Below, piece by piece: positions 46 through 18,065 of a stretch of 24,688 nt of DNA. Where the stretch lies: the IMG/VR virus record IMGVR_UViG_3300027419_000190, positions 1 to 24,688 of that record, one strand, 5' to 3'. Position 1 is the stretch's first letter. Each line of letters opens with the position of its first letter. This stretch comes from a virus. Lineage: Duplodnaviria; Caudoviricetes. Both the position numbers and the translations under genes were made by a program. Under the pieces are notes generated by a model. It searched no databases. It saw nothing but the letters and a program-made list of their open reading frames with translations, and was not told where the DNA came from.

Positions 46-125
46 ATCGGACTATCAAAAGCGAAAAACTGCTTGGCTTCGTCAAGGGTGTATTTGGGGT
101 TTAGGTTGTTTATTATTTCAGGCAT
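42..125 (-). CDS. possible 27-aa ORF (MPEIINNLNPKYTLDEAKQFFAFDSPI) or 5' fragment of an interrupted gene
   Basis: The ATG overlaps the 3' end of the upstream glycosyltransferase gene, as in the rest of the coupled operon. Its TGA lies inside the TTGACA -35 box. Confidence 0.3.
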   Translation of the reverse strand: MPEIINNLNPKYTLDEAKQFFAFDSPI

Positions 126-1090
126 TTGACTTCTTCTTTTTTTAGTTTATCTAAATCTTCTTTTGTCCATCCTTTAACTGGCCAGAATTTTTCCACTAAC
201 CACGAAACCGGATAAATCTGTCCGGGGCATTTTCCTTCCCAAATCATATCTTTCACTCTTTGTTTTGTTCGCTGACATTCTCTTCCTGATTGCGTGTAGG
301 GGAAGCCGAAGACATCGCCTTTAGTTCTAAAACAGTGGCTATACCAGGTTTTGTGATTTATTAATACTTTTCCTCCGCTTAACCACATTTTGCATGCCAG
401 CTCGATGCCCTGCGAACCCCATGAGCCTAAATCATCTCCACATAATTCCAACTCCCAATATTTTTCTCTAGTACACATGAAAAAGCTCCCTTGGAGCGAC
501 ATTGATTGAGTTAGTCCGGTTTCTTCTAGGTCTTTTTTATACTCATCTCGTAATGTATATTCATTCCAATATTGAAAATGCGGAAGGCTGTCAAAACAGT
601 AAACTCTTGAATTAGTACCTCGTCTCGGTTTCCATACTAATTTCTTTTTCATAGTGCTTCCACAACCTGGACAAATGGGTTTGACATCTTGATAAACTTT
701 GAATCCACATTTGTAACATTTGAAATCATAAACGTGAAGATTCTTCATGACGGGAACAATTATTGCATTATCTCCTGCCTTCTCAAATGCTTCAAACATT
801 TTCTTATCAAAGTCTTTATCAAAAGAAGTGTGAGCGTCTGCCTTGCACACATACTTTGCTTTTGATAATCTTGCACATAGATTAGTCATCTTTCTCTGAC
901 CGATGGTTTCTGGAGAATAAATAACGCTAACTCTTGGATGTTGAAGTAATGGGGGATTACTCCATTTACCGTCTAGCCCAACAATCACTTCGGTCTCTTC
1001 TGAAGTATTGGCTAAAATATCTTCTACTGTGTTTTTTAAAAACTCCTCTGTGTTGGCAGGAATTAAAAATGAGAGCTTGTATTGTTTCAT
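113..1090 (-). CDS. GT-A fold glycosyltransferase (GT2-like with GT27/ppGalNAc-T-like motifs) with an inserted Zn-ribbon
   Basis: N-terminal LSFLIPA GT2 strand; DxH motif (KADAHTSF); C-terminal GSFF..REKYWEL...WGSQGIELACKMWLSGG...YSHCFR block; CYKCG...CPGCG insertion. Confidence 0.85.
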   Translation of the reverse strand: MKQYKLSFLIPANTEEFLKNTVEDILANTSEETEVIVGLDGKWSNPPLLQHPRVSVIYSPETIGQRKMTNLCARLSKAKYVCKADAHTSFDKDFDKKMFEAFEKAGDNAIIVPVMKNLHVYDFKCYKCGFKVYQDVKPICPGCGSTMKKKLVWKPRRGTNSRVYCFDSLPHFQYWNEYTLRDEYKKDLEETGLTQSMSLQGSFFMCTREKYWELELCGDDLGSWGSQGIELACKMWLSGGKVLINHKTWYSHCFRTKGDVFGFPYTQSGRECQRTKQRVKDMIWEGKCPGQIYPVSWLVEKFWPVKGWTKEDLDKLKKEEVKCLK

Positions 1091-1091
1091 A

Positions 1092-1850
1092 TCACCATTG
1101 TGTTAATTGATGAAGGTATTGCCCTATCCACTCATCGTGGAGGGCTTTTAAATCCCAATACGGCACTTCTTCCAGTTTCACTTCTTTCCAATTCACAGGG
1201 GGATGTTTGAAGTCCGATAGAGATGTTTTAGGAGAGGAAAAGGTATGTCTGTGCCTGATGTCGATGTTCGGTAGCTCTGACCGCCAGACTTCAAATGTTT
1301 CATCAGAAAATCCACCTCTTCTTCGGGGTTTGGTTCCCGGTTCATAACCCATGACACGACCCCATCTGGGTTCTCTGGCCCTGTCTTTGTCCCAACCCTT
1401 TGATTCCACATAATCCAATCTATCCTGAAAGTGTTTCAACGCTGTTTTTCGATAACAGCAAAGAGCCGATAGAGAATGCAGTCCATCGTAGGTAATAGCG
1501 AAGTCTTCTTTCACAGACCATCGGTAGTTATTGATGTTGTAGTAATAGATGTAATCAGTAGGAGGAGTAAAGTCGAAATGTGATTTGTGATAAAGTAAAT
1601 CGTGTTCAAGAAAGTAAACTATGTCTGTATCAAGAGCTTTCAACGCAGTCACAATCTGAAAAAGCATTGTTGGATATGACCTTTCCCGGTCTGTGATACA
1701 AATGTTTGTTCCTAGGTCAATCGGTTTGTGTAAGGACACAGAAACAATAGGATAAGGACAATTCTCTCTAAGTGTCTGACGACACTTTTCTAATATAAAT
1801 TCTTTGGGTCGGTTGTCGGTGTAGAAGATACAGCCCTTCGTTTTTTCCAT
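1092..1850 (-). CDS. putative GT-A-like glycosyltransferase
   Basis: VYFLEHDLLY acidic motif in the DxD position; paralogous to 3075..3788 (IVSVSLHKPIDLGTNICI vs VISVTQRPMIFGKNICV); cluster context. Confidence 0.6.
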   Translation of the reverse strand: MEKTKGCIFYTDNRPKEFILEKCRQTLRENCPYPIVSVSLHKPIDLGTNICITDRERSYPTMLFQIVTALKALDTDIVYFLEHDLLYHKSHFDFTPPTDYIYYYNINNYRWSVKEDFAITYDGLHSLSALCCYRKTALKHFQDRLDYVESKGWDKDRAREPRWGRVMGYEPGTKPRRRGGFSDETFEVWRSELPNIDIRHRHTFSSPKTSLSDFKHPPVNWKEVKLEEVPYWDLKALHDEWIGQYLHQLTQW

Positions 1851-1851
1851 A

Positions 1852-2475
1852 TTATTTTCGTATGAAGAACCAAGAAAGCATTACATCATTCTTAGTTTCT
1901 TCTTCTAATGGTTTAGACCGTCCGAGAATGTAAAAGTTTTCAATTCCGTTAGCTTCCACATATTCATCCACAGCCCGTCCCACTTCCTCATGCTTTCGGT
2001 ATCTTTGGGGTAGAGAGTTTATTTGAGGGTCGGTGCAAGCATAATCATGTCCTGAAACTATTCCACCTTTCCGAACCTTCTTCGACCATTCTCTGATGTC
2101 TTCAACGACGAAACGGTAACTGTGGTCTCCGTCAATGTACACGAAATCGAGTGATTCATCTTTGAAATCTGTTACACACTGTGCTGACCTCTTCCTGATA
2201 ACTTCGCAGTCGTAAGGTTTCAGTCTTTCAATGGCTCGGAGACATCTGGCATCTTGTTGAACCTGGCTTTGTCTTCCTCTGGCCTTCCAAGGGTCGATTC
2301 CATACATCTTTATTCCCTCTTTACAGAACTTTTCAGTGTACTCTCCTTCCCAAATTCCCACTTCTACGCCTATATTATAACACATTTCCTTGAAAAAAAC
2401 AGGGAGTTCATCCCTGGAACAGTCTGGAATTAAAAAAGGTTTTTCCTTTTTTTCTAATGCTTCTGAAATTTTCAT
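1852..2475 (-). CDS. class I SAM-dependent methyltransferase (Methyltransf_24-like)
   Basis: GVEVGIWEG motif I, GIDPW, LDFVYIDGDHSY and GGIVSGHDY motifs. Confidence 0.9.
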   Translation of the reverse strand: MKISEALEKKEKPFLIPDCSRDELPVFFKEMCYNIGVEVGIWEGEYTEKFCKEGIKMYGIDPWKARGRQSQVQQDARCLRAIERLKPYDCEVIRKRSAQCVTDFKDESLDFVYIDGDHSYRFVVEDIREWSKKVRKGGIVSGHDYACTDPQINSLPQRYRKHEEVGRAVDEYVEANGIENFYILGRSKPLEEETKNDVMLSWFFIRK

Positions 2476-2479
2476 AAAT

Positions 2480-3097
2480 TTAATAGTGTTTTTGCATAAA
2501 ATAACTTAAATCTCTATCCTTAAAGTCGTCTTTGGTTCCTAAGACCCAAAAATTCTCAAAATCATAACTCTTCACAAAGGCATCTACCACGTCTCCAACG
2601 TGTCTCACAATCCTAACGCCTTCGGTAGAGTAATAATCGTGACCTGCGATGACCCCTCCCTTTCTAACCTTCCTGCACCACTGAGCCAAATCCATCGCTA
2701 CATAACCGAATCCGTGGTTGCCGTCTATGTAGACGAAGTCTAGTGAACGGTCGGGGAAATCATCCAGAGCATCCATTGAAAGTTTCTTGACTAACTTACA
2801 GTTAGGATAATCTTTCGTCCTTCCTTTGGCGATTTCATAGACTTCATCTATTGTTCTTCCACCTTTAATGCTGACTATTTTTCGGTAAGTATTGTCTCTC
2901 GTATCCTGCCAAGGGTCAATTCCTGTGATGTCTAACCCAGCCTCGCAATAATCAACGATGTTTTCTCCCCAGGAGACTCCGATTTCAACACCTTTCTTGA
3001 AACCCAGTTCCTTGAAAAGACCCGGCAGGTCTCGGCGAGAAGCTCCCGGTATCCAGTAAGGTAAACCTTTTTTATCAATGTATGACTTTAATTCCAT
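2480..3097 (-). CDS. class I SAM-dependent methyltransferase (Methyltransf_24-like)
   Basis: GVEIGVSWG, GIDPW, LDFVYIDGNH and GGVIAGHDY motifs. Start moved to the ATG at 3097 (MELKSY) to match the paralog 1852..2475. Confidence 0.9.
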   Translation of the reverse strand: MELKSYIDKKGLPYWIPGASRRDLPGLFKELGFKKGVEIGVSWGENIVDYCEAGLDITGIDPWQDTRDNTYRKIVSIKGGRTIDEVYEIAKGRTKDYPNCKLVKKLSMDALDDFPDRSLDFVYIDGNHGFGYVAMDLAQWCRKVRKGGVIAGHDYYSTEGVRIVRHVGDVVDAFVKSYDFENFWVLGTKDDFKDRDLSYFMQKHY

Positions 3098-3788
3098 CTC
3101 GTATAATCGTATAAAATTTAGCTCTAAAATCTTTCCCTGAACCCCAGTATGGGATGTCATAGATTGGTTCTCTGATAGATGAAGTGTAGTTCCTCATACT
3201 CTGGGAAGTCTTGATTTGTACAACGGGTATCTCAGTTTCGTAAAACAAAATATCCTCCTTATTAAAGACATCCTCTCTTTTTGCATGGAACTTCTCTTTA
3301 GGGAAGTTTTTTTGTTCTTCCTTATAATCCCAATCTTCGTCTCCTTTAAATAATTCCTCTAATGTTTTTCGATAGAACTCTGTCCCAACAATTTGTGCAT
3401 GTGTTGCTCCACCTGGTTTCTTAAAAAAATACTTTCTGTGCTGACCCATCACCATGAGGTTATCATTCCGATAGCACTTATCCAGTCTTTCTGGAACAAA
3501 TTTGAAATAATCCGGTCCATAGAAAGTATCTGCCTCGCATGAAAGAGCAAAAGGTGTCTTTATGTTCTGTAAAGCTATAAGTGTTTGTTTAAAGAAATTT
3601 TTTCCAGAAACTCCTACATTGTCTCCTACGCAAATGTTTTTACCAAAAATCATCGGTCGTTGCGTCACCGATATAACATCTAGGTCTCCTTTGTTTTTTA
3701 TTATGTTATCCACTACTCTTTGCTCAAATTCAGGATATTCTCGATTGCTACTACAATAAAAAATCGTAATTAAATCTTTTAGTTCCAT
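3075..3788 (-). CDS. putative GT-A-like glycosyltransferase
   Basis: FALSCEADTFY motif aligns with FLEHDLLY of 1092..1850; the two also share a C-terminal (I/V)PYW motif. Confidence 0.55.
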   Translation of the reverse strand: MELKDLITIFYCSSNREYPEFEQRVVDNIIKNKGDLDVISVTQRPMIFGKNICVGDNVGVSGKNFFKQTLIALQNIKTPFALSCEADTFYGPDYFKFVPERLDKCYRNDNLMVMGQHRKYFFKKPGGATHAQIVGTEFYRKTLEELFKGDEDWDYKEEQKNFPKEKFHAKREDVFNKEDILFYETEIPVVQIKTSQSMRNYTSSIREPIYDIPYWGSGKDFRAKFYTIIRDGIKVIH

Positions 3789-4225
3789 ATTTTTAATTCA
3801 GCTTGTTTACGCCTATTTATAGCTTCTGACTTGCTTTTAAAATAACCAATAAGAGTGGTTTTTCCGTCCTTCGTTATTCGAACTCTCCAAGATTTATAAT
3901 TCTTATACCAATTAACACCCCTGTAACCTGAAGTGCTATCACTTCTCAAGCCAGAATTTATAATATTCTCTGAACGAGTAACCATTCTCAGATTTTTCCT
4001 TGTGTTATTTAGTTTATTTCTATCTTGGTGGTCAACTTCTTTTCCTTTCTGACGGTTTCCCATTATTAGATTATGCATCAATATTGTTTTCTTGTTTTTT
4101 CCACCCCCGATGTCTCTAACTGCATAACCCGTCGACAAGAGATACCACTTCCACTGGTTCAAAAACTCAAAATCATCATCATCAACCATCGCTCTTTTTC
4201 CTTGTGTCAATTTTATATACCTCAT
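3779..4225 (-). CDS. HNH homing endonuclease with C-terminal AP2 DNA-binding domain
   Basis: VDHQDRNKLNNTRKNLR..T..EN..N HNH_3 motif; TSGYRGV..W.V.I...IGYF AP2 motif. The start at 4225 gives an ATGA overlap with the upstream stop. Confidence 0.9.
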   Translation of the reverse strand: MRYIKLTQGKRAMVDDDDFEFLNQWKWYLLSTGYAVRDIGGGKNKKTILMHNLIMGNRQKGKEVDHQDRNKLNNTRKNLRMVTRSENIINSGLRSDSTSGYRGVNWYKNYKSWRVRITKDGKTTLIGYFKSKSEAINRRKQAELKIWN

Positions 4226-4800
4226 GGTTTTAGTATTCCCCATCCATGTTGCGAAAGTTCATGGACAGTCAAATTATTTTTAGAAGCAAATTCGTCCACA
4301 GCTTCTATGACGCCAAAGACTACCCCCGTGTGCTTGGCACGGTAGCGAGAATAATCATCCCCGGTAAAGAAACCTCCCTTCTTCAACTTCGGCCACCAGG
4401 CTTCTAGGTCAGCCTTGCAACCTTCTTCAGTGTGGTCAGCATCGATGTAGATAAGGTCAAAGTATTCATCCGGGAAGAACTTAGCCGCATCCACTGTGTA
4501 CATCCTCATAATCTTAGCGAATGGTTTGTCCTTAATCGACTCCATCACCGAATTATACATGCCATTTAAACGCTCCTGTGGGTAACCACAGTCGTTTCTG
4601 GCGATGATTCCGTCGTCTATCCACATATCCACCCCTACTGCGACTTCTGGGTTGTGTTCAATCATCAGATTAAAATTAAACCCTTCAAACACGCCGATTT
4701 CGGCAATCTTTTGGATGTTGTACTTCTCCATAAAAGGCCTCCAGACTCTCCTTTTATGCTTGATTTCAACTCCTCGTAAATCTTCAACCCAGGTATCCAT
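4222..4800 (-). CDS. class I SAM-dependent methyltransferase (Methyltransf_24-like)
   Basis: AEIGVFEG, FDLIYIDADH and WWPKLKKGGFFTGDDY motifs. Confidence 0.9.
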   Translation of the reverse strand: MDTWVEDLRGVEIKHKRRVWRPFMEKYNIQKIAEIGVFEGFNFNLMIEHNPEVAVGVDMWIDDGIIARNDCGYPQERLNGMYNSVMESIKDKPFAKIMRMYTVDAAKFFPDEYFDLIYIDADHTEEGCKADLEAWWPKLKKGGFFTGDDYSRYRAKHTGVVFGVIEAVDEFASKNNLTVHELSQHGWGILKP

Positions 4801-5521
4801 ATTTGTTAAAATGATTAATTAACCTTTTATTGACTAGCTCCTGTCCGAACCTATTCTTCTTCAGTCTGTGCTGGTGAAAATGCAGAACTTTGATGGGTAA
4901 CTCTGTTTGCTCGTAACAGTGTTTCCTGGTGAGAGGATTGAGATTAAAGTTATAGGTAATGTTCATTCGTTTAATCCGGTCGTTGATGTTTTGGAAATTT
5001 TTATCAGTCAGGTATTTGATAGCCACCTCATCCGAGTAAGCCTTGTAAGCCTCGATGTGATTGATTAAAGTCTTGTCAGGGTGTATATACATTCTCATCC
5101 TCATCCAGACAAAGATATCTTTGGCGTTTGGAGTGAGAAATGAACTCCCACCGTTCCAATTCAATCGGTATCCGTAATCCGTAAAACCTACATCTTTTCC
5201 TTCCAGGTCAGGTTCTGGAAACGGTTCCAACTGAAACGCATCGAAGTCATGATACCAGGTAGTTTCTGTGATAAGCCCTCGGTCGTAGAGTTCAATAAAA
5301 GCATTAATCTTCCCGGAGTACATATAAAACGGACAGATACAATCATCACTGACTTCGATTGATTTCACTCCATCATATTCATAGGGAAAATTACAAACTA
5401 ACATCATGTCTTCTTTATTCCAACCCAATTCCAATGAATTGTCAATAACAATCCTGACGAGCTTTTCATACTCAGGATTGAACTTATGGTCGGGCGAAAT
5501 GTATACGAGAAGATTTTTCAT
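4784..5521 (-). CDS. putative GT-A glycosyltransferase (GT8/nucleotide-diphospho-sugar transferase-like)
   Basis: WYHDFDAF (DxD), WNGGS, SDE, ITYN and VLHFH motifs in the order typical of GT8-like enzymes; paralog of 5986..6693. Confidence 0.65.
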   Translation of the reverse strand: MKNLLVYISPDHKFNPEYEKLVRIVIDNSLELGWNKEDMMLVCNFPYEYDGVKSIEVSDDCICPFYMYSGKINAFIELYDRGLITETTWYHDFDAFQLEPFPEPDLEGKDVGFTDYGYRLNWNGGSSFLTPNAKDIFVWMRMRMYIHPDKTLINHIEAYKAYSDEVAIKYLTDKNFQNINDRIKRMNITYNFNLNPLTRKHCYEQTELPIKVLHFHQHRLKKNRFGQELVNKRLINHFNKYGYLG

Positions 5522-6032
5522 TTTTGAATTGTTTATAATCTACTACCTCATTATTAAAATCGTGAGTCTCTATTATCCACTCCACATCTTCCACTAAATG
5601 TTCTATGGGGTATCTTCTTCCCCATTTCATTAGTGGGTCTTTCAATTTAACAATAGGACAGAGTCTAAGAATAATCGTCCTTAATCCTGATTCTTCCACC
5701 ATCTTCTGAGATTCTTGTTTGCTTCTTCCATAGGCCATCTTCTCAGCGGTAGAACTGAAATGAATCAGCTTGCAGTGATATTCCTTGCAGAGTTCGATAA
5801 CATTTTTGGTTCCCAGAACATTAGTGAAGTGGCAGGCTTCTTCATCTTGAATCTTCTTGGCCTCTCCGGCAGCGTGGATAACAAACTCCATTCCTTCGAA
5901 ATATGGTCTTATTTCTTCCTTATCTCTAATATCCTTGGTAATTGCAGTAATACTGTATCCTTTACTACTGAGATACATAAATAAGTTATGACCTATGAAC
6001 CCCCGGTATCCTAGTATTAATATCTTTTTCAT
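5484..6032 (-). CDS. NAD-dependent epimerase/dehydratase (short SDR)
   Basis: ILILGYRGFIG Rossmann motif, VIHAAG, NVLGT, FSS and the catalytic YGRSK. Confidence 0.85.
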   Translation of the reverse strand: MKKILILGYRGFIGHNLFMYLSSKGYSITAITKDIRDKEEIRPYFEGMEFVIHAAGEAKKIQDEEACHFTNVLGTKNVIELCKEYHCKLIHFSSTAEKMAYGRSKQESQKMVEESGLRTIILRLCPIVKLKDPLMKWGRRYPIEHLVEDVEWIIETHDFNNEVVDYKQFKNEKSSRIHFARP

Positions 6033-6693
6033 ACATTAAATTATATAAATTCTTAGGTAATAGTGTTGCAAATTTAGCTAGAAGATTTTCCCTATAAGGA
6101 TGAAAATGAGCAACTCTTATAGGTTCATCCGCCCACATCATATTTTCTTCCACTCTTCTTTTTCCTAAATTATAAGTAATATTCAATCTTTCAATCCTAT
6201 CATTTATATTTTCAAAATTGCTTTTTGTTAAAATCATCATTGCTCTTTCGTCATCAATTTTTTCTTCTTCTATCACAGTTTTCCATAGTTTAAAAATGTC
6301 TAACGTAGTCGGTTCAAAGAACATACTCCCTCCGTTCCACTTAGAAGACCAACCATAATCCGTCAATCCCAGTTCTTTGTCTAACTTCAAATCTATCGGT
6401 TCTAATTGCCAGGCTTCTGTGTCGTGGAACCAGGTCAGGTCATATAAATAATTATTTTCCAATAGATAACAAATGACATTTATCTTGATAGCACAACGAC
6501 TTGTTTCACTATAAAGGTCATCGGGAACTACCAGGGATTTAACGCCCATATACTCATAAGGGAAGTTCGTCGCCAGTAAAATATCTTCTACTTTCCAGTA
6601 ATTTAAAGAGTTCTCAATCTGAATTTCTATATATTTAGCGTTCTCTTCGTTAAACTTATGTTCCGGACTCACGAAAATTAGCAAATTTTTCAT
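5986..6693 (-). CDS. putative GT-A glycosyltransferase, paralog of 4784..5521
   Basis: Near-identical N-terminus (MKNLLIFVSPEHKFN vs MKNLLVYISPDHKFN); WFHDTEAW, GLTDYG, WNGGS, ITYN and VAHFH motifs. Confidence 0.65.
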   Translation of the reverse strand: MKNLLIFVSPEHKFNEENAKYIEIQIENSLNYWKVEDILLATNFPYEYMGVKSLVVPDDLYSETSRCAIKINVICYLLENNYLYDLTWFHDTEAWQLEPIDLKLDKELGLTDYGWSSKWNGGSMFFEPTTLDIFKLWKTVIEEEKIDDERAMMILTKSNFENINDRIERLNITYNLGKRRVEENMMWADEPIRVAHFHPYRENLLAKFATLLPKNLYNLMYEKDINTRIPGVHRS

Positions 6694-7478
6694 AGTTTTC
6701 CTTCTTTAACTAATTCATCATAGTATGGTTTCCAGACTTTTATAGCGTAAGCATAACCATCATCACAATTAGCTGGGTTCTCTGCTGTGCCGTTGTTATG
6801 AGTGCGTTTAAATGAACGGTGTTTATGAGCATGCCATGTGTTTTTGTTGACCATCAGTTTCCCTCCGGCTTTCCAAGTCTTGAAGACCATTTCGTGTGAG
6901 TCCTGGATAAGAGGTCCATAACCTTCCGTTTGCAGCTCGCCAATAACATCGTCCCACCACTTACGAGGCATTACCCACATTGAGCCTTGCATAGCCTGGG
7001 ATTCTTCTATTTTTAACTTGTCATTACCAGGACGTGAGACTCCAGTGAACTTTCCACCGGAAATCTTTAGTTTCATATAATCGACATAACCGTGTTCTTC
7101 CATAACTTCCCATTTTTCTGGATTTAGGAAGTATCTTCTGGCTGTCATAATCCAGTTTGGCTTGCAGTCCCTGGTAAGTTTCCTGTCATAACCTTTTCCA
7201 AACATTTGGTGTTCATCTGCTCTAAGTAAAAACTCTCCCCTCGAAACCGCCACCCCAGCATTTATAGCGTCTCTCATCCCTCGGTTTTTTCCCAAATGAA
7301 GGTATCTTACCCTAGGGTCTTGGATAATCAAATCAGCAGAAGGATAATAACCATCCCAGACTGCTATAACTTCTAATCTGTCTCCTAACTCTGATTTTTT
7401 TAGCAAGTCATCAATAGTCTTAAATAGCAACGGGTCTTTATAGCTCGGCAAAATGCAACTAAGTTTTATTTCTTGCAT
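6690..7478 (-). CDS. GT2-like glycosyltransferase with DxH motif, paralog of 113..1090
   Basis: LSCILPSY, NRGMRDAINAG, RADEHQMF (DxH), MQGSMW and WKAGGKLMVNKNTWHAHKHR motifs. Confidence 0.85.
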   Translation of the reverse strand: MQEIKLSCILPSYKDPLLFKTIDDLLKKSELGDRLEVIAVWDGYYPSADLIIQDPRVRYLHLGKNRGMRDAINAGVAVSRGEFLLRADEHQMFGKGYDRKLTRDCKPNWIMTARRYFLNPEKWEVMEEHGYVDYMKLKISGGKFTGVSRPGNDKLKIEESQAMQGSMWVMPRKWWDDVIGELQTEGYGPLIQDSHEMVFKTWKAGGKLMVNKNTWHAHKHRSFKRTHNNGTAENPANCDDGYAYAIKVWKPYYDELVKEGKL

Positions 7479-7927
7479 GTTATAAAATGATAATTATTAT
7501 CAAAACTTTTTTTCTCTGTTATCTCAAAGTCTTTGAAATCTATGTCTCCTTCCTCATAAAATAACCATTCTCTTTTGTAGGGTTTATAATCCTTACCAAC
7601 GAATCCAAAGATTGCGACTCCTCCAGGAACCAATATTCTGTATATTTCATTGACCATTAATTGTGGGCTACTTACAAATTCCAGCATGCCATTACAAAGG
7701 ATAGTGTTAAAACAATTTGTCTCCATTCCAGAGTCGCAGATGTCTCCCAGAAAAGTAGGTTTCATTCCCTTGGCTATGTCTATGGTAGGAAATCCATAGT
7801 CCCAATAACGAGACTTTCCCACATCCAACACATTGCCGCTAGCGTTTTTTTCTACCCATTCGTTATACCAGAGTCTACTTGGCGATGGGACGAAATCCTT
7901 TCTTAACTCCTTTATTGAATGGGACAT
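7466..7927 (-). CDS. class I SAM-dependent methyltransferase (Methyltransf_11-like)
   Basis: NVLDVG, GDI, FNTILCNGMLEFV and EIYRILVPGG motifs. Confidence 0.8.
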   Translation of the reverse strand: MSHSIKELRKDFVPSPSRLWYNEWVEKNASGNVLDVGKSRYWDYGFPTIDIAKGMKPTFLGDICDSGMETNCFNTILCNGMLEFVSSPQLMVNEIYRILVPGGVAIFGFVGKDYKPYKREWLFYEEGDIDFKDFEITEKKSFDNNYHFITCKK

Positions 7928-8645
7928 TATTTTTTGTTAAATATTCAAATATTGGTGCTTTGTAATTTCTGTTCTTTAACTCAGGCTTTAACCACAAAAA
8001 CTCCTGGACCAGGTCAATGTCTAGCATAGGATAACGGACTTCTACATCATAAAGTGCAGCAATCTCCTCCAGTTCATTCAGGTATTCTCTTTGCATACCT
8101 TCTCTGAAGTTAGGCCATTCGTAAAGTTCCTCTGGATACTTTCCATTAAAGGTGGACTGTTTGGGGAAGAGGGCATAGTCTGAATAAAGTTCATCTCCAC
8201 CTTGACCTGATATGCAAATCTTCTTTCCTTCCTTGGTAGCGGTGTCAAACATAAAAGCCACTCCCATAGAGGCAATGTCTTTCATCGCTGTTTCATTAAT
8301 TTTTCCCTTCAAGAAGTCGTAGTATTCTTGCCAAACATATTTTGGCATTTCTGCGATAGTGTAATCCTTTATATACTCAAGTCTCTTTTTGATGATACTC
8401 TCATCTTCATTATTGAAAATTGTATAAGCTTTAAAATCCACTCCTTGTTTCACCAACTCCTTAGTAATCGCTCCAGAGTCATATCCTGAAGATAGTCCAA
8501 TAAAACATCCGTCTACTGCTCGTTTTTTAATAGCGTTTTCAAAAGCCCTTAGCCAGTCGTCATAGTTGTCCATGTTCTGGTTGTTAAAATCAAACTCGTG
8601 GGCGTAGAACTCACTTAACTCCTTGTTTTCCCAAGTGTTGTTCAT
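7875..8645 (-). CDS. asparagine synthase C-terminal-like N-type ATP pyrophosphatase (no glutaminase domain)
   Basis: GLSSGYDS PP-loop, SGQGGDELY and EVRYPMLD motifs. Start placed at the ATG at 8645 (MNNTWE) to limit overlap with the upstream gene. Confidence 0.8.
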   Translation of the reverse strand: MNNTWENKELSEFYAHEFDFNNQNMDNYDDWLRAFENAIKKRAVDGCFIGLSSGYDSGAITKELVKQGVDFKAYTIFNNEDESIIKKRLEYIKDYTIAEMPKYVWQEYYDFLKGKINETAMKDIASMGVAFMFDTATKEGKKICISGQGGDELYSDYALFPKQSTFNGKYPEELYEWPNFREGMQREYLNELEEIAALYDVEVRYPMLDIDLVQEFLWLKPELKNRNYKAPIFEYLTKNNVPFNKGVKKGFRPIAK

Positions 8646-9432
8646 ATAACGAAAAATAATTGTTAGCCATTTTTTTAATCGTGTAATCTTCCAATATCTG
8701 AATCCTTCCACTGATTCTTCTTAAAGCACATTTTATTGACTCTACATCTCTTTCAACGATAGTTACTCCTTCTAACTCACTGGAAATTCCCACATCTGTA
8801 GAAAGAACAGGTTTGTTCATCGCCAGAGCTTCGAGCGTTGGGTTGTTGCAACCTTCGCTGATGCTGGGAATGACGAGACAATCAATCCTTTCATAAAATT
8901 TTGGCATTTCTTCATAAGGTATTCCATCAGCCTTTGCCAGCCATAAGTCTAATTCCTTGCAAGCCTGCTCTACTAATTCTAAGCCTTTGTGTTCTGTAGT
9001 CGCTCCTACAAATCCTACTGTAAAATTACTTTTAAATAACTCCGTATCTACTCCATTTGGTATATAGACCATATTTCCCTTATTTGTCAACCTTCTTAAC
9101 TTGTTTTCTAGGTCTGGATTTTGACAAACGCAACAAACTGTGTTTTGGTATATCTCTTTTAAAACTTCTTCCTTATCAAAAAACTGGTCAAGAGTGCGTT
9201 GGGAAGCGAGAGTGGTAAAAGTCTTTTCTTTGTATTTCAATATGAAATCCTTTATCTTCCCTATTCCTCCACTGAACAATATATGTATTATGTCATACTG
9301 TTCTCCGTCTGGCAAATTTTTAAAATAACAGATATCCACAGCGTGTTGAGGCCACTCACGTTTAAGAGCCTCAGCTCTGCGAGTGGTACACCAAGGAGTC
9401 CTGTCAGCATGTACAAGGAGTATTTTACTCAT
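8611..9432 (-). CDS. GT4 (GT-B fold) glycosyltransferase
   Basis: YIPNGVDTELF, VGFVG...KG and LVIPSISEGCNNPTLEALAMNKPVLSTDVG (EX7E motif). Confidence 0.9.
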   Translation of the reverse strand: MSKILLVHADRTPWCTTRRAEALKREWPQHAVDICYFKNLPDGEQYDIIHILFSGGIGKIKDFILKYKEKTFTTLASQRTLDQFFDKEEVLKEIYQNTVCCVCQNPDLENKLRRLTNKGNMVYIPNGVDTELFKSNFTVGFVGATTEHKGLELVEQACKELDLWLAKADGIPYEEMPKFYERIDCLVIPSISEGCNNPTLEALAMNKPVLSTDVGISSELEGVTIVERDVESIKCALRRISGRIQILEDYTIKKMANNYFSLYEQHLGKQGVK

Positions 9433-9908
9433 AAGATTGGCCCATCAATTAAATTCCAAAAATGAAATGACTTAATATAATAATCGTCCCAATAACCTTC
9501 ACGTTTGTTACAGAACTTTAGTCCTAAATCAGCACAAGCCTTTTTTATGTTCTCACTCTCGTGATTCCAGGGAGCGAAGAATATTTCTATCTTCTTTACT
9601 CCTCCGGTCATGCGTTTGGAATTAGTCTTCCAGTAATTCAAAGATTTTTTTAAATCTTCGTAACATTCTTCGTAACTTAATTTGGAATAATCTTTGTGTT
9701 CCCACCCATGAAGACCTATCTTAAGAACAGGAGCAGTCGCCAGATACCAAAAAAGGGCCTGATTCTCCCAGAGGTCCTTCATTATCACGGCTACTGCGTG
9801 TTGTTTTCCTTTGAACATAAATTGCTCATGCAACTCTTTGAATTTAAAAGCATCTGTATATACAGAAATATCATCATCACGGTAGAGCTTAGGTTTTGAA
9901 ATGGGCAT
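9429..9908 (-). CDS. polysaccharide deacetylase (NodB/DUF2334-like)
   Basis: YRDDD, IGLHGWEH (HxxxH) and FFAPWN motifs. Confidence 0.8.
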   Translation of the reverse strand: MPISKPKLYRDDDISVYTDAFKFKELHEQFMFKGKQHAVAVIMKDLWENQALFWYLATAPVLKIGLHGWEHKDYSKLSYEECYEDLKKSLNYWKTNSKRMTGGVKKIEIFFAPWNHESENIKKACADLGLKFCNKREGYWDDYYIKSFHFWNLIDGPIL

Positions 9909-10491
9909 GGTCTTCGTATCTTAAATATTTATGCTTCTTAATATTACCACCTATAAAATTAACTTTCAAATCGGGAAACTTTTTTAGAATAACCGGAAGA
10001 CTTAACTGGTCTCGTTGGCTCCAACGACAAATTTCAGACCACCAGGCTTCGTTAAATCTTTCTACTAACGGAGCGTGTCTTCTGATTATAAACCCTCCCA
10101 TGTACATCTTGGTATCCTCTGGAATACCTATATCTCGATAATGATTCAACTGTTCTCTCACTTCATCTATCACCCATGGAGTCCTGTTTTTAAACATACT
10201 CTCTAAATACCTTTCTTCCTTGTAAATCGTGAAGGCGTGGTTGTGCATGAAGATAGCCATATCAGCGTCTCGTAACCATCTCTTAACGTAAAATTCGGGT
10301 TCTTTTAAAAGAAAAATATTTCCATCCACCCAAATACTTACATCGCAATCAAGGAACTTGTGGGGAAGAATCTTATAAATCTTACTATTATAAACGGGAG
10401 AATGAAATTTAGAAAACTCCGAGAAAACTAAAATGTCGTCTCGGAGTTTATCTTTTTCTCCATGAATTGCAGTATATGCGGTTATTCTCAT
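9889..10491 (-). CDS. DUF616 (TOD1/MUCI70-like) putative glycosyltransferase
   Basis: AYTAIHG, KILPHKFL, SIWVDGNI, FNEAWWSEI and RDQLSLP motifs. The start at 10491 forms a TAATG overlap with the stop of the Ser-rich gene. Confidence 0.75.
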   Translation of the reverse strand: MRITAYTAIHGEKDKLRDDILVFSEFSKFHSPVYNSKIYKILPHKFLDCDVSIWVDGNIFLLKEPEFYVKRWLRDADMAIFMHNHAFTIYKEERYLESMFKNRTPWVIDEVREQLNHYRDIGIPEDTKMYMGGFIIRRHAPLVERFNEAWWSEICRWSQRDQLSLPVILKKFPDLKVNFIGGNIKKHKYLRYEDHAHFKT

Positions 10492-11432
10492 TAGAACTCC
10501 ATCAAACACTTAACAGTTATTGTACCAATCGCTGTCCCAGAAGAAGGAGATACTGAAGGACTGACAGACGTAGAGACTGAAGGAGAAGCAGACTTACTGA
10601 GTGAAGGAGATATTGAAGGGGACGCTGACCTAGAAGTTGACGGACTGATTGAAGGAGATTTGGAAAGACTGACAGACGGTGAGTAAGACTTCGATACAGA
10701 TGGACTAGCCGATGGAGACATCGAGCTACTAGCTGAAGGAGAAAGTGAGTTTGGCGGACTTACAGAAGGACTGATAGAAGGAGAAACTGAAGGGGAGATT
10801 GAAGGAGAAGCTGAAGGACTAGCAGACAATGAAACCGATGGACTTTTCGATGGACTGATTGACGGTGAAGTCGAAGGACTAGCAGACCTTGATACCGATG
10901 GACTAGTAGAAGGTGACACCGAAGAAGACCTTGAAGGACTAGCTGATGGAGATACTGATGGAGAAGCTGACTTGCTAACGGATGGGCTTATCGAAGGTGA
11001 AGCTGACGCACTCCTAGAAGGGCTGTAAGAGTTCACCGGACTGACGCTTCGGCTCACCGAAGGAGATAGTGAAGGTGATACTGACGAAGAAACGTCAGAC
11101 ACTGTTACGGCGACTTTCATCTCTTGAAATCCAAAGAAGTAATAGAGAGCCGCTATCTTTGAACCAGTGTTACCTAAGGTAATAGCGTTAGTCAGGGTTA
11201 TATCAGCCGTGCTGGCTTTCTCCAGGTTGTTGACCAACATATTGTAGTCAACAAATGTGCTTCTATCTAAAGAAACCTGCGTAGCCATTGAAACACTTCT
11301 ATTGGCAAGTCCGGCTCCAGTAAGAATCAAGGAAACCTTCTTGGCGTTAGAAATGTCTATGACCGCTGAAGTTGTGTCCACCGATACCCCATCAATCGCT
11401 GTTACTAAGACTGGAGGTATTCTGTAATACAT
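10491..11432 (-). CDS. Ser/Pro-rich mucin-like protein, probable virion structural protein with a beta-rich domain and an internal (Ser-X)n tract
   Basis: aa 1-114 is beta-strand-like, aa 115-298 is the Ser-X repeat, and a final strand GTITVKCLMEF follows. No signal peptide or TM helix. Located just after the capsid genes. Confidence 0.75.
   Translation of the reverse strand: MYYRIPPVLVTAIDGVSVDTTSAVIDISNAKKVSLILTGAGLANRSVSMATQVSLDRSTFVDYNMLVNNLEKASTADITLTNAITLGNTGSKIAALYYFFGFQEMKVAVTVSDVSSSVSPSLSPSVSRSVSPVNSYSPSRSASASPSISPSVSKSASPSVSPSASPSRSSSVSPSTSPSVSRSASPSTSPSISPSKSPSVSLSASPSASPSISPSVSPSISPSVSPPNSLSPSASSSMSPSASPSVSKSYSPSVSLSKSPSISPSTSRSASPSISPSLSKSASPSVSTSVSPSVSPSSGTAIGTITVKCLMEF
10539..11090 (-). 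repeat. degenerate coding repeat: (Ser-X)n / SPS[V/I/A/T] tract of 184 codons
   Basis: Ser occupies 90 of the 92 alternate positions from aa 115 to 297. Synonymous codons are mixed, so the DNA repeat is imperfect. Confidence 0.95.
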
Positions 11433-11436
11433 ATAT

Positions 11437-11721
11437 TTACTCTGTTACATTGTTAATTAGATTTTGCAACTTTATATATTCCCGTACGACCTTACGAGTC
11501 TGAAGAATAAGTTGCGCTTCCTTATGAGGAACGTAATCATTACCAATTATAACCTTAGGCTCACCATCTACGAAAACTGTCCCAGCTTCGCCCTCTTGGA
11601 CAGCACCTGGGTTGTAGTTCTTTTCTGCGATGAGTTCCTTGACCTTAATCATTACATCAGGAAGATTTTCGATGAAAAGATAATTTTCATAGTTTTCTTT
11701 AACTTTTTTTGGTCGAGCCAT
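11437..11721 (-). CDS. hypothetical protein (head module)
   Basis: 94-aa ORF tightly packed in the operon; basic MARPKK N-terminus. Confidence 0.7.
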   Translation of the reverse strand: MARPKKVKENYENYLFIENLPDVMIKVKELIAEKNYNPGAVQEGEAGTVFVDGEPKVIIGNDYVPHKEAQLILQTRKVVREYIKLQNLINNVTE

Positions 11722-11737
11722 ATAATTGGTTAATTAA

Positions 11738-12115
11738 TTATGATTCCTTGGTCAGGACGCCAGAGTAAGATGTGACGTAAAATGAAGTCCCATCACAGTA
11801 TACCTCTGCATAATTTCCGATAGTTCCGGCGATAGCCAGATACTTAGAAGCTACTCCGTCACCACCGAGATAAATCTTTTCCCCGGTCTGTGGGAGAAGT
11901 TGAACTATTTGAGCGGCTGTAACTTGAATTCTTGTCTTTTGTCCTTTCAGACTTGACGCTGCTGGCAACGTGAGAACGATAGTTCCGGAAGCACCAGTGT
12001 TGGTGTTGTTCTTCTCGAAATCATAAGTGTTCATATCAGCCGTAGCTGCGTTGGCTTTGACAGTGGTATTAGTATCTAAACTAGTGACCACTACGTCAAA
12101 ATTAGTATTTCCCAT
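11738..12115 (-). CDS. putative virion structural protein (capsid decoration/fibre-like)
   Basis: Thr/Ala/Gly-rich beta protein with an IVLTLPAA...G...YCDG..FYV pattern common in phage structural domains; position after the major capsid gene. Confidence 0.55.
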   Translation of the reverse strand: MGNTNFDVVVTSLDTNTTVKANAATADMNTYDFEKNNTNTGASGTIVLTLPAASSLKGQKTRIQVTAAQIVQLLPQTGEKIYLGGDGVASKYLAIAGTIGNYAEVYCDGTSFYVTSYSGVLTKES

Positions 12116-12123
12116 TTGAGTAG

Positions 12124-12185
12124 GATTGCCAATCTATATGTCTTGCGACTTCCTCTCGCACTCCTGCGAGGTCTAAATGGCAATC
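12124..12185 (-). other. predicted structured RNA element (three-way junction) in the intergenic/5' UTR region
   Basis: Closing stem GATTGCCA/TGGCAATC encloses two hairpins on the minus strand: CTCGCA-GGAG-TGCGAG and GTC-GCAA-GAC (GNRA loop). Confidence 0.55.
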
Positions 12186-12191
12186 AATTAG

Positions 12192-13025
12192 TTAATTAAG
12201 TGAAGTGTGCGGGACAGAAATTATTTTTGCGGATTTTATAGAATTGCATTTTCTACAAAGAGGTTGGATATTGTTCTTGTTGTTCTTTCCTCCTTTAGAG
12301 ATGGGATGGATATGGTCGATGGTCAGTTTCATTTCTTCATTTTCTGTCTTACCACAATCAGCACATTTGTTTCCGTGGAGTTCTTTTATTTCCAACCAAC
12401 TCTTTAGACTTATGTGATTATCATCATCCCTTTTACAACCTCTGTTTATTGCGTGATAGTTTGCGTCCTGAACCCTTTTTCTAGCTAACGCCTTGCAATA
12501 TTTTTCAGAAGCAAAGTCTGGATTTTTAAGAAGAAGCATCCGTTCTCTTGTCTGTTTCCTAGAATTGGATAGTTGTTGGCATTTTTTGGAACAATAAGTC
12601 TTATAAGGATTTCTTCTAGTATTATATGGATTGAATTCTTTTTGACATTGAGGACAGATTTTGTTAGCAATTTCTGATATTTTTTTATCTTGATTTCTTC
12701 TGAATCTAATTCTCTGTTCTTCTAATACTTTTTCAGGATTATTCTTTTTCCATAGCTCTTTGTTTAGTCTTGAGAGTTTTTTAGAACACTCAGACGAGCA
12801 AGTATAATGAACAGAATTTTTAGAAAAGAATTTTTTTCCACATATCTTGCAATTGGATTCTACCTCACCACGATATTTAGATTCCCAATAAGACTTATAA
12901 TAATCACGGTGTTTTATGTAGTTTCCTTTTGCACTACACTTTCTTGAACAATAAATTTGCTTTCTTCTCTCTTTTACCTTTGGAACAATCTCTATTCCGC
13001 ACACTTCACATTTTCTCTTTTGCAT
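12192..13025 (-). CDS. HNH endonuclease with three N-terminal CxxC...CSxxC Zn-binding repeats
   Basis: C-terminal CADCG...LTIDHIHPISKGGKNNKNNIQPLCRKCNSIK HNH motif; N-terminal CEVC/YCSRKC, CKIC/TCSSEC and CPQC/YCSKKC repeats. Confidence 0.9.
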   Translation of the reverse strand: MQKRKCEVCGIEIVPKVKERRKQIYCSRKCSAKGNYIKHRDYYKSYWESKYRGEVESNCKICGKKFFSKNSVHYTCSSECSKKLSRLNKELWKKNNPEKVLEEQRIRFRRNQDKKISEIANKICPQCQKEFNPYNTRRNPYKTYCSKKCQQLSNSRKQTRERMLLLKNPDFASEKYCKALARKRVQDANYHAINRGCKRDDDNHISLKSWLEIKELHGNKCADCGKTENEEMKLTIDHIHPISKGGKNNKNNIQPLCRKCNSIKSAKIISVPHTSLN

Positions 13026-13083
13026 ATACTTATAGGGTTATTTATTACCTTATAAGTATAACGCTCTATTGGGGACTTGTCAA
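13025..13083 (-). promoter_or_regulatory. sigma70-like promoter of the HNH gene (TTGACA-17-TATACT) overlapping a hairpin that covers the translation start region
   Basis: -35 at 13083-13078 and -10 at 13060-13055; inverted repeat TATACTTATA (13025-13034) / TATAAGTATA (13051-13060). Confidence 0.75.
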
Positions 13084-13091
13084 CCTATGCT

Positions 13092-14096
13092 TTACAGGGC
13101 ATAAGATGAGTTATCGCCTTTTGACCCCCAGCACGCGCGCCAGTTCTTATTACCAACCTGCCATCTCGCAGAGATGTCATAGATAGTATTCTTGTTCTTG
13201 TTGTCCATGTAGACAGAAGTCTGAATACCTCTTCGTTGATAAAAGATGAACGGCGAATAAAGGGAATCAATCAGGAACCAAGCTGTGTCAGAACCACCAT
13301 TTTGAGAGTTAATCCACTTAGTGGAGATAACAGTGACATTCCCATCGAAGATGTTAAGGTCATTGTTAGCTGTTCCACTTCTTTTAGTAGACTTGGTGAT
13401 AACGACAGCTGTTTCTTCCAGAGAATCAGGAACCAACAAAATCAAGCGACCAGAACCGATAGCCATCGGAAGTCCTCGGTCATCGAGTTGTCTTCGGAGA
13501 GCTTGTTTCCCGGTGCTAAGATTTGTCGGAGTCAAAGGAATACCTGACGCAGAGGCATTGCTTATTCCAGTTCCACCATCTTTACGAGGGTGAAGAATGG
13601 AACAAAGGGGAACACCATCTGAGTAAAAAGTCAGGTCGGAAGGCAGAGAAGCCTGAGCTGTGAAAGCATAGTTGAAGATAGAGAACGCTGAACGGTCAAA
13701 TTCCATATTCATTGACACGTTCAGGTCATAAGCCTCATCAAACTTGCTTTGCAGGTCATTCTCTCTGTCATCTTTTTCTTCCTCAGTTATTTCGATAGAG
13801 TTCGTCTTCTTGATGAATCGGAACACAGTCAGATAACCAGGGATTCGACTGTCAGTAGCATAGTCCTGACCCTCAGTCGTGAGTGTCGGGTATCCTACAC
13901 CAGTCTTGCTTGTGTATCTTTCTTCCGCTTTATCGGAAGTTTTTTCTTTGAAGAGACGAGTAGCTTTGTTGGTTTCCACTCCCAAAGCTGAATTTATTCC
14001 TAGAGAATAAGACATTGAAGCCTGATTCTCTACTTCAGCAAATTTGGCAGCTAATCCCTTAATCCACCCATCACCCCATGTTGCTCGTGTTTCCAT
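13092..14096 (-). CDS. major capsid protein (HK97 fold)
   Basis: 334 aa after scaffold and cement genes; DGVPLCS..HP, LLVP..LE..A, WFL and a C-terminal R..VG...WRACWGS pattern typical of Mu gpT-like capsid proteins. Confidence 0.85.
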   Translation of the reverse strand: METRATWGDGWIKGLAAKFAEVENQASMSYSLGINSALGVETNKATRLFKEKTSDKAEERYTSKTGVGYPTLTTEGQDYATDSRIPGYLTVFRFIKKTNSIEITEEEKDDRENDLQSKFDEAYDLNVSMNMEFDRSAFSIFNYAFTAQASLPSDLTFYSDGVPLCSILHPRKDGGTGISNASASGIPLTPTNLSTGKQALRRQLDDRGLPMAIGSGRLILLVPDSLEETAVVITKSTKRSGTANNDLNIFDGNVTVISTKWINSQNGGSDTAWFLIDSLYSPFIFYQRRGIQTSVYMDNKNKNTIYDISARWQVGNKNWRACWGSKGDNSSYAL

Positions 14097-14120
14097 AAAA
14101 TTAGTTTAGGTTAATTAGGG

Positions 14121-14660
14121 TTAGGCTGTTTCTGCGTTAAATTCGTGCAGAGCGATACTAACAAGGATATTCCCAGAGTCATCAGGGTCAACCCCATGAC
14201 CGTAGAAATTAGCCTCTGTTCCTTCAGTCCGGGTAGCGGTCGTTTCGAGAACCTGTCCGAATGACGAACCAGCTGAATCGATGTCGATTCGTATTCCACG
14301 AAGGTCAGAATCATTGGTTGTTCCAACTGTTCCATTACAGTCAGCCGAATAGATAGAATCTTTCGAAACATCAACCATTGCGTAATAAGTTGTATTAGCC
14401 GCTCCGGTTGTCTTTGAACGGGTGTCAGTTCCAGAAGCAGTTCCAGCTACCGGGTTGGTAGACTTAAATGGAAGCCCCTGTGCATCGCAGATAGAAGCAA
14501 TGACTCCCAAAACAGGTTTCCCGGCTTCACCTCTAAGGGCAACTCCGGTTGACATTGTTTCTACAACATCTCCGACTGCGAAAGCCAAACTAGAACCGAG
14601 AAGAATCTTCTCCAGTTTTCGTCCCACTCCGCCAATCGTTCTTTTATACTTTAAAGCCAT
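14121..14660 (-). CDS. putative capsid cement/decoration protein
   Basis: Gly/Thr/Ala-rich beta protein (FAVGDVV, PVLGV) between the scaffold and major capsid genes. Confidence 0.6.
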   Translation of the reverse strand: MALKYKRTIGGVGRKLEKILLGSSLAFAVGDVVETMSTGVALRGEAGKPVLGVIASICDAQGLPFKSTNPVAGTASGTDTRSKTTGAANTTYYAMVDVSKDSIYSADCNGTVGTTNDSDLRGIRIDIDSAGSSFGQVLETTATRTEGTEANFYGHGVDPDDSGNILVSIALHEFNAETA

Positions 14661-14677
14661 AGTAGTAATTTAGTTAA

Positions 14678-15349
14678 TTATGTCAGAATCCGCATAGAAC
14701 CAGATTTAATTTTAGCCTTATACGCCTTCATTCCCTCATCAGAAATGTTAAATTCCTTCTGGTATTTGCGGTCTTCTGCCGTGAACTCATCCTTTATAGT
14801 GCCTTTAGAAGCACCATCGCCGGAAACGGCGTCCCCAGCCATCTCTTTTTTCTTCTCCTCTACTTCGGCATTTCCGGGGTCTCCAGCGTCTATTCTGTGT
14901 GCCATTTCGAGTTGTTCATAATAACTGAACTTTGAATCTGGTTTTATAGCTTCATCCATCACATCGAGAAGTCTCTGCCATCTTTCGGCACTACTCTCGT
15001 ATTCAGGATGAAGATTAAAGAAAGCTGTCCTATCTTTTCTTCTGTTGTCCTGTTCCCGTTTGTTCATTTGTTCGAGAACTGGTTTCAGTTTCTCGTCAAT
15101 CAAAACAGCTGGGTCAGGTTTCTTTTCCTCCTCGAAAATATCTTCTTCCTTTTTCTCTTCCTCTTCAGGGGGAGTTTCTTTTTCAGCAAGTTTCTTTTCG
15201 AGTTCTCTTTTTTCGGCTTCGAGTTCACGTTGCTTTCGCAATGTTTGGTTGAACTTGTTAGCCGGGACAACTTCTTCTACCTTTTCAAAGTCCTCTTTTG
15301 AAGGTTCCTCTATCTTTTCTTCAGGAACTTCTTTTTTTTCCTCTTCCAT
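14678..15349 (-). CDS. capsid scaffolding protein
   Basis: Highly acidic coiled-coil protein with a short basic C-terminal helix pair; syntenic between portal and major capsid. Confidence 0.7.
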   Translation of the reverse strand: MEEEKKEVPEEKIEEPSKEDFEKVEEVVPANKFNQTLRKQRELEAEKRELEKKLAEKETPPEEEEKKEEDIFEEEKKPDPAVLIDEKLKPVLEQMNKREQDNRRKDRTAFFNLHPEYESSAERWQRLLDVMDEAIKPDSKFSYYEQLEMAHRIDAGDPGNAEVEEKKKEMAGDAVSGDGASKGTIKDEFTAEDRKYQKEFNISDEGMKAYKAKIKSGSMRILT

Positions 15350-15426
15350 AATTTTGTAGCTTTAACCTGTTTTTTTTACTCCAGAGTGTCATCTCTGGGA
15401 TAAGTTACTAATTATATTATTATGAA

Positions 15427-16235: not shown

Positions 16236-16238
16236 AAA

Positions 16239-18059: not shown

Positions 18060-18065
18060 GCCAAT

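Follow-up and report, generated by a model that had tools for sequence, protein, structure and literature searches.

A Ser-X tract predicted to loop out of a phage jelly-roll protein encoded beside a glycan-enzyme cassette

Introduction

The phage contig analysed here (IMG/VR record IMGVR_UViG_3300027419_000190; 24,688 nt, the whole of which we call the window) contains a minus-strand ORF of 313 aa (10491-11432) whose product carries serine at nearly every second position of a long tract. The locus raises the question of how such a tract is held by the rest of the protein and what it does for the phage. A first-pass annotation, made from the DNA letters alone, had proposed that the tract is a loop inserted before the last strand of one beta-rich domain, that its periodicity is kept at the protein level, and that it offers O-glycosylation sites whose presence follows that of a glycosyltransferase cluster. 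In the literature that we searched, mycobacteriophages are the one precedent found for glycosylation of phage particles. The accessible parts of three reports (PMC11256854, PMC12619734, PMC13445384) state that phage-encoded glycosyltransferases glycosylate mycobacteriophage capsids; for Che8 and other phages (Freeman et al. 2023), the glycans are reported to sit on the C-terminal ends of the subunits of capsid and tail tube (PMC12619734, accessible part). The part of PMC12494034 that was available added nothing on this precedent.

Results

The window is a single contig in which a head block is followed by the Ser-X gene and then by 16 packed ORFs. The head block (terminase-portal-capsid, 11437-20393) was recognized by matches of the portal protein to PF23899, of TerL to phrog_38 and of TerS to PF16677. 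The major capsid gene (13092..14096, minus strand; PF25209, PF10124, phrog_371) lies four genes upstream of the Ser-X gene; its product has no Ser-rich tail and found only 25-29% matches among GenBank phages in tblastn. The other head-block ORFs encode an acidic 223-aa protein taken for the scaffold, an HNH protein, and proteins of 179, 125 and 94 aa. On the other side, the stop codon of the Ser-X gene overlaps the likely ATG (TAATG) of a TOD1/MUCI70 glycosyltransferase-like gene (9889..10491, minus strand; PF04765, E 5e-17). This gene belongs to a cassette of 16 abutting or overlapping minus-strand ORFs (113..10491), in which the later gaps are at most 4 nt. Eleven of the 16 products match glycosyltransferase, methyltransferase, epimerase, deacetylase or Asn-synthase-like families, one is an HNH protein and four have no family; the cassette holds four methyltransferases, a GT-B enzyme (8611-9432, PF00534) and an Asn-synthase-like ligase. 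Promoter and terminator counts around the Ser-X gene were at chance level only.

The Ser-X tract spans aa 115-298 (10539..11090, minus strand), is predicted to be disordered, and contains 94 Ser in 184 residues, 90 of them in phase. Recounting agreed with the first-pass annotation that Ser fills 90 of the 92 odd positions of aa 115-297, the exceptions being V133 in the break SPVNS (aa 131-135; 11028..11042, minus strand) and P227 in the break SPPNS (aa 225-229; 10746..10760, minus strand), 94 residues past the first. The flanking stretches MKVAVTV and GTITVKCLMEF were found at aa 105-111 and aa 303-313. As had been described, X is mostly Pro, Val, Ala or Ile with scattered Lys and Arg (P32, V15, A11, I6, L5, R5, K5, T4, S3, N2, Y2, M1); the tract thus has 10 Lys/Arg, and Asp and Glu are absent. 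The probability of this Ser phasing by chance, given the composition, is 8e-45. Proline is periodic too: S-P pairs are spaced by 4 residues (17 times), 8 (12) or 6 (2), and SPSP is absent, which gives SPSX or SPSXSXSX as the repeat unit.

All six kinds of Ser codon are used in the tract (TCT28, TCA27, AGT16, TCG10, AGC5, TCC4), in a mix that does not differ from that of 20 neighbouring genes (chi-square p=0.17). Self-identity of the tract DNA at lags of 24 and 282 nt, both chosen after the autocorrelation profile was viewed, was higher than in all 1000 shuffles, and for a lag of 12 nt the shuffle count was 45 of 1000. The 282-nt lag aligns the two phase breaks with each other. Because these lag signals are present while the longest exact repeat is 15 nt, the DNA suggests old duplications and not recent slippage. 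The full tract is also present in seven other full-length homologs, each from a separate contig, so it is no assembly artefact. Six of these seven tracts likewise have exactly two breaks, and that of locus L003 has none.

Searches of Pfam, PHROG and PDB with the sequence of the domain around the tract gave nothing significant, and tblastn of the domain against 50,697 GenBank phage records found no relative. A profile search for insert-less homologs, as the annotation had suggested, was productive: 61 homologs of 61-252 aa were found, and the tract is absent from all 58 that were aligned. The profile built from the insert-less homologs matches the Ser-X protein over aa 9-114 with E 2e-26. Together with a model of the closest insert-less sister, P0006, it defines aa 1-114 (11091..11432, minus strand) as a jelly roll that lacks its last strand. 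The remainder, aa 299-313 (10494..10538, minus strand), is by alignment and model a remnant of an ancestral turn followed by the last strand, 304-312.

P0006 begins with MRIPPVLVT, as does the window protein, and ends with ISD-SGGSPSG-TISCSVLVEY. Its model, folded with 59 sequences, has a mean pLDDT of 91.9 and places strands at 103-112 and 118-128; the fold without the tract was thus judged on a natural sister, not on a deleted form of the window protein. The model superposes on the C-terminal domain of XepA with Z 14.3 (rmsd 2.0, 108 residues aligned) and on YomS with Z 13.7, the rmsd for the two being 2.0-2.1 over 107-108 residues; the next structure in the search reaches only Z 9.1. Matches in BFVD are mostly uncharacterised phage proteins. 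The model of the full-length Ser-X protein (P0001; 10 sequences) is of low confidence overall, with a mean pLDDT of 41.5, the value being about 30 in the tract as against 63-70 at strand 304-312. It nevertheless aligns from residue 1 to 313 with XepA 172..279 (Z 9.4, rmsd 3.2, 103 residues) and with YomS at Z 9.0, the strand after the tract completing the jelly roll. According to these models, the ORF product is a predicted single jelly roll of the XepA/YomS type, whose last hairpin turn is expanded into a 184-residue Ser-X loop. Atlas look-alikes of the domain are viral clusters of 97-137 aa proteins, with feature scores of 0.87-0.89 to clusters in which XepA makes up 23% of the members.

In most insert-less homologs the last two strands are joined by a short turn of the form D-G-x-T/S-P-T/S-G, a motif found in 40 of the 61 insert-less rows. 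Two tract-bearing proteins keep the end of this turn behind the tract (GGTPTG in L009, PGTPTG in L012), and the insertion site is therefore just past the turn's Asp. A quick tree of 69 rows groups all eight insert-bearing rows into one clade (SH-aLRT 87) and gives P0006 as its sister (99); the three homolog protein searches spanned 30-252 aa, full-length insert-bearing forms came from contig scans only, and other insert-bearing lineages may have escaped. The simplest history that these sequences suggest would be a single gain of the tract in a pre-existing turn. Sequence, tree and models together show that the ancestor, of about 130 aa, had a short turn between the last two strands, and that the tract entered at exactly this point in one lineage, which retained the last strand. 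The placement of the tract as a loop before the last strand of one domain is thus borne out by three lines of evidence, namely the short turn in the homologs, the modelled strand 304-312 and the one-clade tree. The protein search with L013 led to no viral locus. In L067 and L154 the tract of the Ser-X protein is also internal; a loop insertion in a second small beta family, A10, was considered for these two and is not claimed, as the A10 profile gave no match to them.

Comparison of tracts among relatives, measured by one definition in the eight full-length forms, gave 182 residues in four (window, L001, L002, L008), 188 in three (L005, L009, L012) and 156 in one (L003). No in-phase Ser was lost in any of nine colinear tract pairs; in three of the pairs, the lone difference counted was Val versus Gln at the first break. 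Thr never replaced an in-phase Ser. Between 42 and 59 of about 89-92 Ser codons differed per pair, with 7-14 switches between TCN and AGY, and 20-46 of about 91-94 X residues were changed. Neutral simulation at 50-55% site divergence kept a mean of 19-22 of 92 Ser and a maximum of 36 (1000 runs). That no Ser was lost even though over half of the Ser codons differ means that serine is selected. The proposal that periodicity is kept at the protein level is therefore supported, the conserved feature being the Ser side chain at every second position, with X free to drift.

The candidate initiating enzyme, GT2a (113..1090, minus strand), is a soluble GT-A protein of 325 aa in which only PF00535 and a weak zinc ribbon were matched. 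Its best PDB match is GalNAc-T7 (E 1.3e-5), and its best nine PDB rows consist of eight polypeptide GalNAc-Ts and one entry titled 'Glycosyl transferase'; the likeness is weak and spans about 90 residues. Polypeptide GalNAc-transferases, CAZy family GT27, bind Mn through a DxH motif and a distal His, and typically carry a ricin-type lectin domain at the C-terminus. GT2a has DxH at 85-87, WGSQGIE at 224-230 and H252. D85 and H87 are present in 74 of 74 family rows and H252 in 73. WGSQGIE aligns with WGGENFE of GalNAc-T, the Glu of WGGE being Gln in 48 of the 74 rows and Glu in nine. No lectin domain was matched in GT2a by Pfam, and tblastn of GT2a against the 50,697 GenBank phage records found no relative. 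A paralog, GT2b (6690..7478, minus strand; PF00535, E 6e-9), had no significant PDB match when searched alone; against the GT2b copy in L004, the GT2a profile reaches 191 bits.

Relatives of GT2a were found in 73 viral loci, 57 of which have an S/T-X tract within 10 kb. Where at least 5 kb of downstream DNA was available, a long Ser tract was present in 27 of 29 loci; L093, one of the two exceptions, carries tracts in which Thr and Ser are mixed. For the reverse test, 55 contigs were drawn from the leading 74 loci of a scan for repeat patterns in 31 of the collection's 64 parts, with L189-L269 omitted (81 loci, most with less than 2 kb of DNA and four with more than 10 kb). A GT2a-like gene was found in 22 of 37 long-tract contigs versus 2 of 18 with short or spurious tracts (p=0.001), leaving 15 of 37 long-tract contigs without one in the DNA covered; these counts and the p value, like the other co-occurrence counts given here, are for raw loci, not dereplicated and with kinship ignored. 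Neither GT2a nor a tract was seen in any of nine control loci chosen for a related capsid gene (54-76% identity), which include two duplicate pairs and four loci with about 4 kb or less downstream.

The claim that the insert tracks a glycosyltransferase cluster held in one direction only. All seven insert-bearing loci whose downstream genes could be read (window/L004, L001, L002, L003, L005, L008, L009) run into glycan enzymes, these seven representing a single clade and a single insertion event, and four insert-less loci (L030, L034/L040, L036, L038) have neither a GT2a-like gene nor a tract in 4-10 kb downstream. In L031 and L064, on the other hand, transferases stand beside an insert-less jelly roll and the Ser-X tracts are on neighbouring proteins, so the jelly-roll loop is one of several tract carriers. 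L029 is a weaker case of glycan enzymes with an insert-less jelly roll: it encodes a GT2-methyltransferase fusion, and no tract occurs within 4.4 kb. On this comparison of loci, the co-occurring pair is apparently a GalNAc-T-like enzyme and a Ser-X tract on some nearby protein.

Discussion

We consider it fairly probable that the loop is a dedicated acceptor, O-glycosylated by the phage's own glycosyltransferases, and forms a sugar brush on the particle; O-glycosylation of the tract serines is in itself plausible and has indirect support. GT2a and GT2b would add HexNAc to the tract serines in the host cytoplasm, and the other transferases, methyltransferases, epimerase and deacetylase would elongate and cap the glycans. 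The jelly-roll domain may dock on capsid or tail, perhaps as a pentamer like XepA/YomS. Since both ends of the tract are fixed, it would project as a closed loop. If each residue of a glycosylated chain adds about 0.25 nm, the closed loop could reach roughly 20-25 nm. With its sugars, such a loop might serve as a shield or as a weak multivalent contact surface, and the loop format would provide about 90 sites per subunit while the C-terminus stays in the sheet.

The weakest step of this model appears to be the virion location. XepA, the top fold match (Z 14.3), is exported and absent from mature PBSX particles according to the accessible part of PMC6834076, and no PHROG structural family matches the jelly-roll domain. 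Both observations would fit a protein that is glycosylated on its loop by the cassette and is no stable part of the virion, with a role in assembly or lysis or as a released, soluble glycosylated decoy. We regard this as rather unlikely, because in nearly every locus examined the jelly-roll family comes directly after the capsid gene, and because related loci bear Ser-X tracts on a head-closure-like protein and on LamG- or DUF2341-bearing ones. Further, XepA toxicity requires the XepA N-terminal domain (PMC6834076, accessible part), which the Ser-X protein lacks. The likeness to XepA-C and YomS consists of a 4+4 beta-sandwich jelly roll superposable over the whole domain; sequence identity is 10-14%, the Ser-X gene is in a head block and not in a lysis or tail context, and the 184-aa loop is its own. 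YomS adjoins tail genes and has no assigned location, and the authors of PMC6834076 only propose capsid-vertex binding. Against proven decoration proteins the P0006 model gave Z 8.8 for gp002 of phage 7-7-1 (a decoration protein in the available part of PMC12796354), 7.2 for the KHP40 cement protein and 6.9 for BPP-1. Jelly-roll decoration and cement proteins share with the Ser-X protein a small single jelly roll and a gene near the capsid gene; the Z values are in the common-fold range, and these proteins have no long loop.

The tract might also be an unmodified, disordered spacer or entropic bristle, with the cassette acting on DNA, host surface polysaccharide or other proteins. Among the known targets of phage glycosyltransferases are DNA and the host serotype (PMC12619734, accessible part), and most homologs have no insert, including two from phages with the cassette. 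A spacer, however, should tolerate Thr, Ala or Gly, and no in-phase Ser was lost in the nine pairs; a loop closed at both ends separates nothing; and GT2a resembles peptide-acting enzymes and tracks Ser-X tracts in many phages. We therefore think this explanation unlikely, a little more so than a role outside the virion.

If the serines are modified, the agent could be a host enzyme, the group could be other than a sugar (phosphate, methyl or acyl), or the GT-B or MUCI70-like enzyme could act in place of the GalNAc-T-like pair. The cassette includes four methyltransferases, a GT-B enzyme and an Asn-synthase-like ligase, the gene that overlaps the Ser-X gene is the MUCI70-like one, and host-dependent methylation of a phage tail protein has been reported (PMC13445384, accessible part). 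We judge such modifications improbable: there is no kinase match among the 32 window ORFs, in L003 the gene after the tract gene is not the MUCI70-like one, and GT2a-like genes accompany tracts widely. Selectively neutral expansion of a repeat that a permissive loop tolerates, which the 24-nt and 282-nt duplication traces and the variable loop length of insert-less homologs might suggest, is highly improbable, since it is contradicted by the codon comparison, with synonymous sites heavily diverged and Ser fully kept, and by the clustering of tract lengths at 182 (four of eight), 188 (three) and 156 (one).

The first-pass annotation had also likened the alternation to the serine-rich repeat proteins (SRRPs) and to staphylococcal SD repeats. 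The Ser-X periodicity beside a glycosyltransferase island is indeed common to SRRPs (PsrP, Srr1), SD proteins and the Ser-X gene; beyond that, the comparison is an analogy only. SRRPs have a signal sequence, two Ser-rich regions, a binding region, an LPxTG motif, accessory Sec and GtfA/B (PMC7661464, accessible part). Whereas they begin with an extended signal and end with LPxTG, the Ser-X protein begins with the jelly roll, as seen on the sister P0006, and ends in the domain strand GTITVKCLMEF. No Sec-family Pfam match, which the secA2, secY2 and asp genes of SRRP loci would call for, was found among the 32 window ORFs. GtfA/GtfB initiate glycosylation of SRRPs, and the window has one GT-B ORF (PF00534). 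In the staphylococcal proteins X is Asp, while in this tract it is Pro, Val, Ala or Ile and never Asp. The SRRP and SD repeats form a linear stalk, unlike the closed loop proposed here. With only the Ser-X pattern in common, the tract may work like an SRRP repeat without being a member of that family.

Mucin-type O-glycosylation is a second point of comparison. GT2a has the DxH, the third His and a WGxxxxE..K.W..GG stretch, and the acceptor is Ser/Pro-rich. The enzyme differs in its size of 325 aa, its zinc-ribbon-like insert, its lack of a lectin match and the mostly Gln residue in place of the WGGE Glu, and the candidate acceptor in the phage is strictly Ser and strictly alternating. We found no paper describing a phage GalNAc-T-like enzyme with Ser-X acceptors, in a search that had most subscription journals outside it. 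With the mycobacteriophages the locus shares phage-encoded glycosyltransferases and virion proteins as the proposed target; here the acceptor would be a dedicated internal loop of an accessory protein with about 90 candidate sites, and the enzymes are GalNAc-T-like.

The locus points to a different and apparently common design, in which a dedicated, strictly periodic acceptor is paired with enzymes resembling animal mucin initiators. If this is true, the pairing would be a source of soluble prokaryotic-system enzymes that O-glycosylate densely, and the protein a natural example of a jelly roll accommodating a loop of 184 residues. The small size of the Ser-X protein (313 aa), the natural insert-less sister as a control and the overlap with the first enzyme gene place it among the easiest test substrates.

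There is an even chance, in our estimate, that the Ser-X tract is a portable glycan-acceptor module of a widespread mucin-type O-glycosylation in uncultured phages with soluble GalNAc-T-like enzymes, and that linkers, C-terminal ends and the interior of folded domains can all receive it. In the window it would make a bottle-brush in loop form, with about 90 sugar chains on each subunit, out of an ordinary XepA/YomS-type jelly roll, the site and lineage being traceable from an insert-less sister. A second case of placement inside a protein comes from L045, which is 79% identical to window positions 167-2290 and was used as a proxy for the DNA before window position 1. L045 continues with an 834-aa protein that has a long Ser-X tract and then with a head-closure-like protein of 925 aa (phrog_578, E 1e-6). 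Within this second protein, a block of about 440 residues, consisting of Ser-X, a LamG domain (PF13385) and Ser-X again, separates two motifs that are adjacent in L027 and L034, and insertion within a structural protein has therefore occurred at least twice in this lineage.

Discussion

In L031, a distant phage whose capsid protein is 28% identical to that of the window phage, the polypeptide GalNAc-transferase-like enzyme GT2a is 55% identical. The gene order at L031:9980-17537 is a jelly-roll homolog lacking the Ser-X loop, then an epimerase, the GT2a paralog GT2b, a methyltransferase, GT2a, and finally two proteins with Ser-X tracts, both of which are Glu-rich. This locus suggests a cassette that is mobile among phages and a variable charge of X.

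Ser-X tracts are also found on other proteins of L045, a close relative of the window phage. A head-closure-like protein (phrog_578; L045:8224-11001) carries an insert of about 440 residues, composed of a Ser-X tract, a LamG domain and a second Ser-X tract; the motifs flanking it adjoin each other in the viral loci L027 and L034. SPPNS/SPPDS breaks, similar to those of the window tract, are present in this protein. Directly after the GT2a gene, L045:2575-5079 encodes an 834-aa protein with a 204-Ser tract, whose counterpart in the window phage would probably follow window position 1. By eye, its N-terminal part looks like the protein at L031:13657-15438.

Two small proteins carry Ser-X tracts of 233 residues (L067:5043-6146) and 311 residues (L154:9601-10974), each mid-way in an apparent short beta domain. 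A profile of a candidate insert-less family matched neither protein. The L057:4274-4801 protein, which resembles by eye the 125-aa window ORF (11738-12115), has a 31-residue Ser-X tail that is absent from the window copy.

Within the window cassette, four ORFs (1092-1850, 3075-3788, 4784-5521 and 5986-6693) had no match in Pfam and PHROG searches; DxD-like motifs were seen in them by eye, and they are likely further GT-A enzymes. The Asn-synthase-like ORF (7875-8711) encodes 278 aa, versus 402-413 aa in its L002 and L005 counterparts, which are extended at the N-terminus; the glutaminase domain may be missing from the window copy.

The three HNH endonuclease genes of the window (3779-4243, 12192-13025 and 15747-16235) have a patchy distribution in close relatives: no such gene follows the capsid gene in L001, and in L045 one precedes GT2a. 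A near-consensus sigma-70 site (13083-13055, minus strand; TTGACA-17-TATACT, 11/12) lies directly after the capsid gene, upstream of the HNH-to-glycan-cassette run, the overall count of such sites being at chance level. GC skew and AT skew change sign within window 10001-11000, which would be explained by the codon make-up of the Ser-X tract. At 791 aa, the terminase large subunit of L003 (L003:2055-4430) is longer than the 509-aa window protein; its gene has an ORF nested in a different frame, and it possibly carries an intein or other insertion.
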